From a virus (taxonomy: Duplodnaviria > Heunggongvirae > Uroviricota > Caudoviricetes): a stretch of 49,396 nt of DNA. The stretch is from the IMG/VR virus record IMGVR_UViG_2582580752_000019, one strand, 5' to 3'. The position numbers are program-made. This document shows positions 12,001 to 24,000 of the stretch, piece after piece; the stretch's first letter is position 1; every line of letters begins with the position of its first letter.

Positions 12001-15000
12001 CTCCGGAGTTTGAGCAGGCATGGCTGGCATACCCCAAACGTGCTGGTGGCAATTCAAAATCAGCAGCCTTCAAAGCCTGGAAAGCCCGTTTGAACGAGGG
12101 GGTAAACCCCGAAACCATGCTGGAAGGTGTGAAACGCTACGCGGGCTGGGTATCTGCGATGGGCAATAGCGGCACACAATTTGTGAAACAGGCTGTCACG
12201 TTCTTTGGTCCGGATCGTCATTTCGAAGAATCCTGGGAAGTTCCTGCGGTATCTGCAGCCAGACGCGATGACCCGTACTTCAAAGCCAGTTACGACAACG
12301 TGGACTACAGCCAGATCCCGGCAGGATTCAGGGGGTGATCATGAGTCTGTTAAATGACGTTCAGAAATTCATTGAAGCCCATCCGGGGTGTGCTTCCGGA
12401 GACATTGCGGATGCTTTTGCAGGTTACTCACGACAGCGCGTTCTGCAGTCAGCAAGCAAGTTACGTCAGAGTGGGCGTGTGGCTCACCGTTGTGAAGGGG
12501 ATACTCGCAGACATTTCCCGCGCCAGACTGAGGTTTTGCAGGAATCGGAACCGCAACCAGTTCGTGAAACCAGACCTGTGCGCAATTTCTATGTCGGCAC
12601 TAACGACCCCCGGGTGATTTTGTGCCTGACCCGCCAGGCTGAAGAACTGGAGTCCAGGGGCTTATACCGTCGTGCTGCAACGGTGTGGATGGCGGCATTC
12701 CGTGAAAGCCACTCCCAGCCAGAACGAAACAATTTTCTGGCGCGTCGTGAGCGGTGCTTACGGAAAAGCAGCAAGCGCGCTGCATCGGGTGAAGAGTGGT
12801 ATCTGTCAGGGAATTACGTGGGGGCTTAATGAGTAATAAATATTGCCAGGCGCTGGTGGAACTGCGGAACAAACCAGCCCATGAACTGAAGGAAGTGGGC
12901 GATCAGTGGCGCACGCCGGACAACATTTTCTGGGGAATTAACACCCTGTTTGGCCCGTTTGTTCTGGATCTGTTTACTGACGGTGATAACGCCAAATGTG
13001 CCGCGTATTACACGGCGGAAGATAACGCGCTGGCGCATGACTGGTCAGAACGTCTTGCGGAGCTTAAAGGTGCTGCCTTTGGTAATCCCCCATACAGCCG
13101 CGCCAGTCAGCATGAGGGGCAATACATCACCGGCATGCGTTACATCATGAAACATGCCAGTTCCATGCGTGATAAGGGCGGGCGCTATGTTTTCCTGATC
13201 AAAGCTGCCACCAGCGAAGTGTGGTGGCCGGAAGATGCGGACCATATTGCTTTTATTCGCGGGCGTATTGGTTTTGAACTGCCTGCCTGGTTTATCCCGA
13301 AGGACGAGAAGCAGGTGCCGACAGGAGCTTTTTTCGCTGGTGCTATTGCTGTTTTTGACAAGACCTGGAAGGGACCGGCAATCAGCTACATCGGGCGCGA
13401 TGAACTTGAGGCATGTGGTGAGGCGTTTCTGGCGCAGGTTCGCCAGCAGGCGGAAAAACTGGTCAGGGAGATGGCGGCATGACGACGTTAACTCAATGCC
13501 AGCAGCAGGTGCTGGATATGCTGATTTCTTATCAGAAAGAACGTGGCTTCCCGCCAACCAATCAGGAGGTGGCAACCATGCTGGGATACCGTTCGGTGAA
13601 TGCAGCGGTGGAGCATCTTCGCGCACTGGAGAAAAAAGGCGTCATCACGATAAAGCGTGGTGTGGCCCGGGGGATCACGCTTCATACCGCGGTGAAGGAC
13701 GACGACAGCGAGGCGGTCGGGATTATCCGCTCACTGCTTGCCGGTGAGGAAAACGCAAGGCTGCGTGCAACTCACTGGTTACATGAGAGAGGCCTGAAAG
13801 TATGAAGCTGATCCTGCCTTTCCCGCCCAGCGTGAACACGTACTGGCGACACCCCAACAAAGGGGCATTTGCTGGTAAGAGCCTGATAAGCGAGGCGGGG
13901 CGAAAATTTCAGAGCGCGGCGTGCGCAGCAATAGTTGAGCAGTTACGTCGTCTGCCGAAACCAACGTCGGCACCTGCTTCAGTGGAGATCGTGTTGTTTC
14001 CTCCGGATAACCGGATCCGCGATCTGGACAACTATAACAAGGCGCTGTTTGACGCCCTGACCCACGCGGGTGTGTGGGAAGACGACAGCCAGGTGAAAAG
14101 AATGCTGGTGGAGTGGGGACCGGTTATCCCGAAAGGGAAGGTCGAGATCACTATCAGTAAGTATGAGAAACCGGCGGGTGCAGCCGCCTGATTAAGAGGA
14201 GAAACGAAGTATGAATAATCTGATGGTCATTGATGGTATTGAAGTTCGTCGTGATGCTTATGGGCGTTACAGCCTGAACGATCTGCACAGGGCAGCCGGG
14301 GGAGAACAAAAAAAACGCCCGAAATACTGGCTCTCCAATAAGCAAACCTGTGAATTGATTGAACAACTTTTCACCGAGGGTGGAATTCCGCCTCTGGAAA
14401 AGAATCAACCAGTTAGCGTTATTAATGGCGGAAATAACCAGGGGACGTATGTCTGCAAAGAACTGGTGTATGCCTATGCAATGTGGATCAGCCCGTCATT
14501 CCATCTGAAGGTGATCCGTACTTTCGATATGGTAACCAGCGCATCGGAAAAATTATCCGGGCAGGCTGCTGACAAGATGCAGGCTGGCGTGATTCTGCTG
14601 GACTTTATGCGCCGGGAGTTAAACCTGTCTAACTCTTCAGTGCTTGGTGCCTGTCAGAAACTCCAGGAGGCTGTTGGCTTACCGAATCTGGCACCGCGCT
14701 ATGCCATTGATGCTCCTGCTGACGCGCCTGATGGCTCAAGCCGCCCCACGCTGTCACTGAGTGCACTGCTGAAGCAGTATGGTATCCGCCTGACAGCTAA
14801 TCAGGCATATCACCAGATGGCGAAGCTGGGGATCGTTGAACAACGTGAACGATACAGCCGCACTGCGATTAACAACATCAAAAAATTCTGGTCGCTGACG
14901 GCGAAAGGCTGCATGTTCGGCAAGAACATCACCAGTCCCGCAAATCCGCGCGAGACGCAGCCGCATTTCTTCGAATCCCGGTTCCCTGAGCTGTTAAAGC

Positions 15001-21000: not shown

Positions 21001-24000
21001 GGAAAGGGCTGATGACTCGCCGCGAGATTGAGCGTGAAGTCTGTTTGTGGGGGCAACAATGAGCAGGGTAACCGTTATTATCTCCGCTCTGGTTATCTGC
21101 ATTATCGCCTGCCTGTCATGGGCTGTTAATCATTACCGCGATAACGCCATTACCTACAAAGCGCAACGCGATAAAAAAGCCAGTGAGCTGAAGCTGGCGA
21201 ACGTGACAATTACTGATATGCAGGTACGCCAGCGTGATGTCGCTGCACTTGATGCCAGATACTCGAGGGAATTAGCCGATGCGAGAGCTGAAAATGAAAC
21301 TCTGCGTGCTGATGTTGCCGCTGGTCGTAAGCGCCTGCGCATCAACGCCAACTGTCCAGGCTCCTTGCGTAAAGCCCCCATCACCTCCGGCGTGGGTAAT
21401 GCAACCGGTCCCCGACTGGCAGAAGCCGCTGAACGGGATTATTTCATCCTCAGAGAACGGCTGATGGCAATGCAGAAGCAACTGGAAGGAGCACAGGAAT
21501 ATATCCGTACCCAGTGTATACCGTGATGTTTTGTTATGAATATGTTACTGGTAACGTTAAGGTAATTTAACAAAGAGTCAGTTCCGGACTTTATAGTGTG
21601 CTCAGTTCATGGCCAAAAACGATTTCTGTGATAAATATTTTGAATATTATTTACAGGTAAATGGAGTGGGGCGCATGGATAGAAATATTACAATAGAGTA
21701 TGAAGTATATGCCCGTATTGTATGGGCAGAGAAGGCAAAAACACGGTAATTCCGTGTGTTGCCATGATACCTGATTGGCAGAATAGTTGTTTGGTTTTGA
21801 GTATATAGTCAGCGTTTTTTGTTCAGTAATTGCCCCCTCAAAAAATAATAAAATAAGGTGATTATTTTTGTTTATTATTTAGTTTTTTTTGTGTGTTGTT
21901 TTATTGTTTTTGCGTGGTTTGTTTTTTATTGTTATTTCATTAAGGGAAGGTAAATTCAGGATGGCAGTCTGTAGATAATCGGAGGTCACTTATGCTACAT
22001 GATCACGTGGCAGAATGTCTGGAGAAAAAAGGACTGTACCGGAGAGCAGCTGAACGATGGGCAAAAGTGATGGTACAGCTAAGTGATGACCAGAAAAGAA
22101 AAGTGGCGGCACAGAAACGAGCAGAGTGTTTGCGTAAGGCGCGCCGGACTCCGGTTTCACCGGTGAACCTGACCGAAATAAAACAAGCGGTCAACAGACT
22201 ACATTCTGAGTTGGGAATGGGATTTGAAGAGCGGCGGGTATTCCGACGATATAAAGGGACAGGAGAACAGAATACGTCCGGAAACGCGCGGTCAAAAAAA
22301 TGCTAAAAAATATCTGAGAGAGTTATTGCCTGTTACCATAAGAAAAAGCGACTTTAGTGGTCGCTTTTTGTGTCATATATAAGTCGTTTAAGTAAACCTG
22401 TCTGAACAGGTGCTCTGGTCGTGTTTGTCTTTGTTGGGTACAAATTGAGAATATTTTTCATTAATTAATCTTCTTCTGCAGGCTTCAATAACCCACGCTG
22501 AAAAATTACCTGAACCTTTCTGGTCAAGAGCGATGTTAATTTGTTCAATCATCTGGTTTGGAAATCGGATGTTGCGGGTTGTTGTTCTGCGGGGCCGGTT
22601 TTTCGATGACATTTTCTTTCCTCTGGTGACAAGCTATATGGCGAGGATTTTACATGGCTGTGCTTCGTACGTTACCGGGCAGAATCAAAACTCTGAACAC
22701 CCGGCGGGTGAATATTCTGAAGGGTGAACAGCGTCGTGTCAGTGGCAGTGCACGTGTTTCCCTCAAGCGTCATATCTGGCTCAGGGATGCCGGGCAGTGC
22801 TGTCTCTGTGGTCGTGTGGTTGACCTCTGTGACAGTGAACTCGATCACCGAATTGCACTTCAGTTCGGTGGTGGTAATGAGGAGACGAATCTCTGGACGC
22901 TCTGTACCGAATGCCATCGACAAAAGTCTGCTCGTGAAGCGGCGGGTGGTATGCCGGACCCGACGCTGCCGGAGGTGTCCGGAGGTCATGGCAGGGCAGA
23001 CGATATCATCGGACTGTGACCCGCCCCGGGGGGGGGGGGGGATCATCCGGCGAAAAAAACGATCGCCCCGGACACCGCCCCCCCTCTCACGCAGAGAAAA
23101 AATTCCCGTTTCAGGGCAGTTAACATGTTAACTGGCTGTCCGGGCATTTTTGCGGTTTTTATCTTTATTATTCAGTTTGTTGTGCGGAAAAAATGTTAAC
23201 TGGCTTTTTCAGCAAATGTTAACCAGGCAGCAGTTAACATTTGCGGCATGAGACGCCGGGAAAAATGGGCTGAACCATACCCGGCTGAGTGCGTTCTGGA
23301 CCCGGGAGGAGGCTGTGCTGACAACGCAAAAACGAAAATTTGCGCTGGCGCTCATGTCCGGGAAAAACAAAACAGCGTCAGCCATTGCCGCTGGTTATTC
23401 GGCGAAGACCGCCAGGGTTAAAGGCTCGCAGCTGGCAAAAGATCCGGAGGTGCTTGCGTTTATAGCCCGTAAACAATGCGAGACGGTGGAGGTGGATGAG
23501 GTTCCTGTTTACCGGCAGAAAAAATCAGAGCAGGAGGATAAACCCCGTCGCCGTGAGGCGGCTGCAATACCACAGCCGGATGAAAAAAATCCGGAGATGC
23601 CTCCGCCCGCGGTGATATCTCATGGTATTGAATATATGGAGGATGGTCTTCCCGATCCGGTGAAAGCTATGGGGCAGATCCTGGTGGAAAACCTGATAAT
23701 TGACCCGAAACTGGCACTGGATGCGGCCTGGCGACTGGCGCAGTTCACACACCATAAAAAAGGCGATGCCGGTAAAAAATCGGCAAAAGGTGATGCCGCG
23801 AAAAAAGCGGCTAACCGTTTTGCGGTGCCACCACCTCCCCGACTGGTGGTGAATAACCAGAATGAGGAAAGCGGATGATACCTGTATGGAGCACGGCATG
23901 TCCGGACTGGGCAGAGCGCCTGAAAAAGGGGCTGTCGATTATTCCGGCTCCGATTTATCCGGACCAGGCTGCACATGCACTGGCGATTTTTAAACAACTG

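Follow-up and report, generated by a model that had tools for sequence, protein, structure and literature searches.

The 49,396-nucleotide IMG/VR virus record IMGVR_UViG_2582580752_000019 (Caudoviricetes), referred to below at its full length as the window, comes from a lambdoid prophage whose host is a LEE-type pathogenic Escherichia coli (LEE, locus of enterocyte effacement). It contains two open reading frames (ORFs), one of 164 aa at 12335-12829 and one of 104 aa at 21992-22306, which a first-pass annotation had singled out as two PerC/Pch-family regulators in one prophage. We found both at these positions and within a single prophage, and at least 67 complete genomes carry the same 11.5-kb arrangement of the two genes. 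We are fairly confident that they are two distinct, annotated members of the PerC superfamily, a pchA moron and a yfdN-type early gene, which occupy different modules of one dusA-integrated lambdoid prophage through mosaicism and most likely do different jobs.

The Pfam PerC profile (PF06069; 90 positions, gathering cut-off 22.6 bits) recognises both products, which bears out the family membership proposed for them. ORF 21992-22306 reaches 149.3 bits, with positions 1-89 of the 90 in the profile aligned, and has the canonical length and single-domain build of the family. ORF 12335-12829 scores 36.3 bits, and only its residues 100-151 are aligned, to profile positions 5-56 of 90; rather than the single domain of about 85-105 aa that spans the whole profile, it has two domains and leaves positions 57-90 unmatched. 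Because its PerC match is partial and its build two-domain, ORF 12335-12829 is, judged by sequence, a divergent PerC sub-family member and not a canonical PerC protein. The signature LExxGLYRRAA...W...CLRK claimed for the pair is likewise real, as LExxGLYRRAA, W and CLRK occur literally in both proteins. In a direct pairwise alignment, residues 102-145 of the YfdN-type protein and residues 7-50 of PchA share 18 of 44 positions (E = 1e-7), and the common signature therefore lies far above chance.

The 104-aa ORF (plus strand; RefSeq WP_001303878.1) is a pchA-type, group 1 pch gene. Its product is identical at all 104 positions to PchA (ECs1091) of O157:H7 Sakai, and it lies in the conserved cassette that follows lambdoid lysis genes, so that the protein, the AT-rich spacer, the terminator and the post-lysis lambdoid position are all like those of PchA, PchB and PchC of enterohaemorrhagic E. 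coli (EHEC) O157:H7. Over a 900-bp stretch comprising spacer, pchA and downstream hairpin, DNA identity to the Sakai Sp4 locus is about 99%. The prophage described here differs from Sp4 in being dusA-integrated and in having an SfV-like early region; otherwise there is no notable difference from the Sakai gene.

Ahead of pchA lies the AT-rich DNA that had been remarked upon in the first-pass annotation, a 465-bp spacer (21527-21991) bounded by the stop codon of an Rz-like gene at 21526 and the pchA start at 21992. Its GC content is 33.3%, with a minimum of 22% per 100 bp, and 465-bp windows as AT-rich as this make up 0.4% of all those in a sequence of 51.4% GC. About 99% identical to the DNA upstream of Sakai Sp4 pchA, it is the presumed promoter and 5' untranslated region of the gene, and its silencing by H-NS is plausible. 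A simple promoter scan of the spacer gave matches no more numerous than in shuffled sequence, and an Rfam search of it returned no family at E <= 1. The look for a known small RNA (sRNA) in the spacer had been prompted by a 2026 paper on the prophage sRNA HnrS, which lies in other Sakai prophages (Sp9, Sp10 and Sp12). Within the spacer we also observed a 46-aa ORF (21609-21749, plus strand) and, on the minus strand, a hairpin resembling a terminator (21757 to 21741), neither with an Rfam match and both conserved in Sakai.

Downstream of pchA, a hairpin with A5 and T5 flanks (22343-22369) resembles a bidirectional intrinsic terminator. It is conserved in Sakai, has a predicted folding energy of -14.7 kcal/mol (z = -4.3; none of 200 shuffled sequences was equally stable) and separates pchA from a convergent gene of the DUF3950 (YlcI/YnfO) family at 22388-22612 on the minus strand. 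The pchA gene is thus built like a self-contained moron: it has its own AT-rich upstream region and terminator hairpin, and it is inserted in the late transcription unit where the lysis cassette gives way to the terminase genes. Of 5,426 complete E. coli genomes, 671 carry the 844-bp cassette (median, three copies), 656 of these at an identity of 99% or more. From isolated phage genomes it is essentially absent, the sole match being one 1.5-kb fragment.

On the strength of its identity to the characterised Sakai PchA, this copy of pchA encodes a true LEE activator, activation of LEE1/ler having been published for the identical protein (PMC4764244, PMC5931665). PchA activates LEE1 only if the promoter is silenced by H-NS/StpA/Hha/YdgT; it lowers H-NS occupancy at LEE1 both in vivo and in vitro, and PchA and Ler together also reduce this occupancy at effector loci, nleG clusters among them (PMC4764244). 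The pchA gene itself is known to take input from LrhA, Lrp/butyrate and LeuO (PMC4456613). In the lysogen, a promoter of its own within the spacer would drive pchA, and induction would add read-through from the Q-dependent late transcript. Prophage-inducing drugs, or SOS induction, raise the expression of group 1 pch genes (PMC6265319, PMC7369912), which is consistent with the position of pchA in the late transcription unit.

The 164-aa ORF (12335-12829, plus strand) is named in RefSeq 'yfdN: PerC family transcriptional regulator' (WP_001447903.1). It matches phrog_1324 with E 1.5e-77 over residues 2-163, which places it in the YfdN type, and its product is equal in length and 95% identical to YfdN of E. 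coli K-12. YfdN has already been termed "the K12 unique PerC homologue" (PMC5931665), and the literature on it consists otherwise of incidental screen hits. The start codon is likely ATG at 12341 (162 aa) and not GTG at 12335 (164 aa), since the former is the start of SfV orf40 and has a GGGGG motif shortly before it, and since the majority of homologues start with MSL.... We considered and rejected PchD and PchE as identities for this protein, both being single-domain proteins (89 and 90 aa).

On either side the yfdN-type gene overlaps its neighbours. The gene upstream (11520-12338, plus strand) encodes a replication-type helix-turn-helix (HTH) protein of 272 aa (Pfam HTH_36, 44.1 bits; DnaD_N, 24.3 bits, below cut-off), whose orthologue is annotated as a replication protein in Shigella phage SfV (orf39) and other phages; its stop and the yfdN-type start overlap by 4 nt (GTGA). 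Downstream, with an overlap of 1 nt between stop and start (TAATG), lies a Dam-type N6-adenine methyltransferase gene (12829-13482, plus strand, RefSeq start; Pfam Dam, 156 bits). From these overlaps and the position in the early operon, the yfdN-type gene reads as a translationally coupled, delayed-early phage gene. The early-right operon is collinear with that of SfV, where the counterpart orf40 (phrog_1324) has the same flanking genes, a replication-type gene and yfdM/dam. The cryptic K-12 prophage CPS-53 has the same order, yfdO-yfdN-yfdM; its yfdN neighbours are truncated remnants, whereas here the whole early operon is intact.

An alignment of 19 homologues shows conservation in two blocks of the YfdN-type protein, with a Pro/Glu linker between them that varies and is rich in indels. 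For the first block (residues 5-62; 12347-12520), AlphaFold2 predicts the helix-helix-helix-strand-strand order of a winged helix (H5-15, H21-27, H33-46, E49-54 and E57-62), with a predicted local distance difference test (pLDDT) score of 81-89. Foldseek superposes 58-68 residues of it at 1.7-2.9 A on solved structures in the PDB, among them SmtB, CadC, MarR, SlyA and PerR (probability 1.00); its neighbours include ArsR/SmtB, MarR/SlyA, Fur/PerR and DsrD winged helices, at weak E values of 0.002-0.2. Sequence matches are thin, namely phrog_1687 (MarR family) at E 2.7e-4 and NCBIfam BilQ at E 0.17, and no Pfam HTH family matches this domain at E <= 1; one distant relative bears the NCBI name MarR family. 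The linker (residues 65-87; 12527-12595) is a gapped block of the alignment and is predicted to be disordered (pLDDT < 50). Beyond it lies a predicted three-helix, PerC/ANR-like domain (residues 92-149; 12608-12781; helices 92-107, 111-124 and 128-149, pLDDT 83-90) containing LESRGLYRRAATVW...RRERCLRK, and then a conserved, unstructured C-terminal tail ending in EEWYLSGNYVGA (12782-12826; pLDDT about 40). In this tail W155, L157, G159, Y161, V162 and G163 are invariant in the 19 homologues, and its W-x-L-x-G pattern is kept in stand-alone C-domain relatives; EEWYLSGNYVGA may serve as a short docking motif. Both window proteins have the core A-x2-L-E-x2-G-x3-R-A-A-x2-W...R...R-x2-C in common with PerC of enteropathogenic E. 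coli (EPEC) and with PchD and PchE of EHEC. In contrast to these proteins, the YfdN type has the winged helix and linker in addition, has no counterpart to the C-terminal third of the PerC profile and terminates with the conserved WYLSGNYVG tail.

The N-terminal winged helix suggested in the first-pass annotation is thus upheld by the predicted structure, but the description of its fusion to a PerC-like domain as unusual is not. The YfdN type occurs in 2,672 of the 5,426 complete E. coli genomes (49%), including K-12, enterotoxigenic, avian pathogenic and environmental strains, mostly LEE-negative. In a tblastn search we found it in 56 phage records, among them SfV, SfII, SfIV, ST64B, mEp460 and Stx2 phages, and in every one of these records with an annotated flanking gene the replication gene adjoins it. 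When 1.84 billion representatives were searched exhaustively, 98 matches emerged, of which about 20 are full-length two-domain proteins (138-165 aa, 26-47% identity) that fall into about 20 distinct clusters at 50% identity; they come from Citrobacter, Lelliottia, Kosakonia, Pseudocitrobacter, E. coli and Caudoviricetes. Given its presence in half of the genomes, in 56 phage records and in some 20 divergent clusters, the fusion is an old and abundant architecture, odd only when set beside the characterised single-domain PerC/Pch proteins.

At identities as low as 30-38% the gene order is HTH_36 replication-type gene, YfdN-type gene, adenine methyltransferase, LexA-type DNA-binding domain and RusA. 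The methyltransferase, however, changes in kind: of three distant neighbourhoods one has Dam (PF05869) and two the unrelated MT-A70 (PF05063), which, by sequence family, is non-orthologous replacement at a fixed position downstream of the YfdN type. We observed such a methyltransferase gene, invariably as the next gene downstream, at 12829-13482 of the window and, in the loci compared, at L011:1912-2580, L012:485-1144 and L017:4459-5688. An obligatory link between yfdN and the replication gene was also considered; most neighbourhoods fit it, but two distant two-domain relatives break it, one following AlpA/DUF3950 in a small integrative element and the other following RecT. Association with the replication/methylation module is thus common without being obligatory. 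In an unrelated element a DUF3950 gene (L015:3539-3721) lies immediately upstream of a distant two-domain YfdN relative and divergent from it; that DUF3950 genes occur both near this relative and near pchA may be coincidence.

The PerC core also overlaps with the ANR family (Aar, Rnr, Cnr; NCBIfam NF033650, curated cut-off 32 bits). The ANR model matches eight of ten PerC-type proteins, with scores of 23.4 bits for the YfdN-type protein, 13.6 for PchA, 16.2 for PchD and 17.9 for PchE, over the same residues and in register. Both window proteins thus miss the cut-off, and the true ANR protein Rnr scores 56.9 bits. One protein from Klebsiella aerogenes (P0195), named ANR by NCBI, passes both cut-offs (PerC 72.4 bits, ANR 45.1 bits). 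Moreover, the three-helix C-domain has a TPR-like fold, and a structural neighbour of the PerC/ANR-like core is an ANR-family phage protein at 0.6 A. Taken together, the overlap at the level of sequence and of predicted fold is indicative of a TPR-like module for protein binding. The common core of about 50 residues lies at 12608-12781 and 21992-22150 in the window, and we observed it as well at L008:3001-3231 and in P0195. ANR proteins, which resemble the window proteins in this core and in the in-register matches, are smaller than 10 kDa and act as repressors of virulence regulons without binding DNA, whereas PchA activates and YfdN has a domain of DNA-binding type. They bind AraC-family regulators, H-NS and Ler (PMC5570504, PMC10148876, PMC4983702), direct binding of AraC-family regulators or H-NS being known only for Aar and Rnr. 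The overlap with PerC was remarked upon once in passing, in 2025, for a LEE1-repressing PerC-family protein of a phage-inducible chromosomal island (PMC11773190); the ANR literature itself never mentions PerC.

Genes for ANR proteins are, moreover, often phage-borne too. In EPEC E2348/69 (L008:1-3234), the characterised ANR gene rnr is an early-region gene of a Mu-like prophage that also encodes a Mu transposase, a MuB-like ATPase and DUF3164, so that both ANR and PerC-type genes can belong to the early genes of phages. We further observed that pchE of Sakai Sp7 (L003:14711-30171) shares a small element with genes for an integrase, a primase and a few head proteins; the element resembles the phage-inducible chromosomal islands reported to carry PerC-like genes (PMC11773190).

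The prophage as a whole runs from a LexA-like repressor through SfV-like early genes, Q, three tRNA genes, a SASA-type esterase gene and lysis genes to pchA, after which come the HK97-type head genes, the tail genes, an NleG effector gene and an integrase next to dusA. The tyrosine integrase gene (46797-47894, minus strand) adjoins an intact dusA (47983-49020, plus strand), which identifies dusA as the integration site; the opposite prophage end is marked by a dusA fragment in a near-identical strain. Low-GC cargo follows the tail-fibre genes (44413-46163, 39% GC). It includes an NleG-family type III effector gene (45243-46163, minus strand; 161 bits), whose ORF is probably over-extended at a TTG start, and a 201-aa ORF (44413-45018, plus strand) without a Pfam match.

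Several other features accompany these genes. In the early region, isrK (10511-10587) and C4 antisense RNA (10612-10699), both found by Rfam, lie side by side and amount to an immunity RNA pair of P1/P7 type, here within a lambdoid prophage. The tRNA cluster (17286-17537) comprises a tRNA with a CAT anticodon, which ARAGORN assigns to Met and RefSeq to Ile (ileZ-type), together with Arg-TCG and Arg-TCT, the usual set downstream of Q in EHEC lambdoid prophages. Between this cluster and the esterase gene, likewise downstream of Q, STnc100 (17647-17855, plus strand; Rfam, 170.9 bits) abuts the anti-GcvB sRNA AgvB (17856-17915, minus strand; 56.2 bits, just at the cut-off). The esterase gene (18063-19913) encodes a 616-aa carbohydrate esterase of the SASA family, with DUF1737, SASA and DUF6645 domains, which we take to be NanS-p-like. 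Following Q and the tRNAs, it stands in the late-region place that Shiga-toxin genes have in Stx phages; there is no stx here.

Since half of all genomes carry a yfdN-type gene, the co-occurrence of the two genes is best read as ordinary modular phage mosaicism and not as a paired system. The view implied in the first-pass annotation, that both proteins are LEE (ler) activators acting redundantly or in cooperation, draws on their common core motif and on PerC scores above the Pfam cut-off, and it agrees with the removal of yfdN by Uhlich et al. from a K-12 ler::lacZ reporter strain, which suggests that cross-talk was thought possible (PMC5931665). The YfdN type is, however, found in 49% of E. 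coli genomes and in Shigella and Salmonella phages without LEE, and it lacks PerC profile positions 57-90. Nor does the PerC-family label predict LEE activation, as PchD and PchE are neutral toward LEE1 and do not activate ler, and EcCIMP1_025 represses LEE1 (PMC5931665, PMC11773190). Grouping the first gene as a Pch-type ler regulator is consequently unjustified, and we consider shared LEE activation highly improbable; the LEE-negative hosts and the mixed activities of the family make it the least likely of the rival explanations. The YfdN-type gene is probably not a dedicated LEE regulator. It could instead belong to the replication/methylation module as a lambda-P-like accessory of the HTH_36 initiator or as a partner of the adjacent methyltransferase that sets its specificity or regulates it, and not be a transcription factor at all. 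Its slot directly after the replication-type gene and before the methyltransferase, with 4-nt and 1-nt overlaps, speaks for this, as do the persistence of that order at 30-38% identity, the exchange of Dam for MT-A70 downstream, which suggests that position outweighs the particular gene, and an early operon with no annotated helicase or helicase-loader gene. Yet two distant relatives stand elsewhere, beside AlpA/DUF3950 and after RecT, the C-domain is homologous to regulators (PerC, ANR) and not to known replication factors, and sequence and fold comparisons reveal no helicase-loader similarity, so that we regard this explanation as unlikely.

We propose, tentatively and with less than even confidence, a DNA-tethered regulator: the winged helix of the YfdN-type protein would tether it to DNA, its PerC/ANR-like domain would contact a nucleoid or regulatory protein (of the H-NS family or similar), and together these would modulate how phage or host DNA is transcribed in the course of lytic development. 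A purely ANR-like protein binder, that is, an anti-activator or H-NS modulator whose N-domain serves oligomerisation or partner binding and not DNA binding, would account for the in-register ANR model matches, the ANR structural neighbour at 0.6 A, the TPR-like fold typical of protein-protein interaction modules, and the binding of AraC-family regulators, H-NS and Ler by ANR proteins that do not bind DNA. We think it quite unlikely, as the ANR scores fall under the curated cut-off, profile-profile support is weak, and the N-domain is a canonical winged helix whose structural neighbours are all DNA-binding regulators. Several observations weigh against the link between PerC and ANR. Comparison of the ANR and PerC profiles with hhalign is in register but yields a probability of only 2-7%, which is low because the alignments are shallow; Rnr has no Pfam PerC match, and a reciprocal Pfam scan of ANR proteins gave weak TPR hits only. 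Fukui et al. did not see co-precipitation of PchA with H-NS (PMC4764244). A sequence search found no solved structure for any PerC-family protein. More broadly, and doubtfully, PerC activators and ANR anti-activators might form one superfamily built on a TPR-like three-helix module, with YfdN as its DNA-tethered phage housekeeping form and PchA, PerC and ANR as stand-alone derivatives co-opted for virulence.

Both genes were already annotated in RefSeq and one is identical to a characterised regulator, so that the finding is real but ordinary. For estimates of virulence-regulator dosage in EHEC, the 164-aa gene should not be scored as an extra pch copy, and pchA is a true activator gene, conserved in full, that shares its prophage with the type III effector gene nleG. 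What interest remains attaches to the role of the YfdN type, which is very common, and to the relationship between PerC and ANR. YfdN is among the commonest uncharacterised prophage genes in E. coli, and its domain make-up, together with the PerC/ANR overlap, offers a concrete hypothesis for mode of action across a family of small regulators. If the superfamily reading is true, YfdN would act as a delayed-early factor, either by remodelling H-NS-type nucleoprotein on the phage's DNA or by controlling the adjacent adenine methyltransferase.

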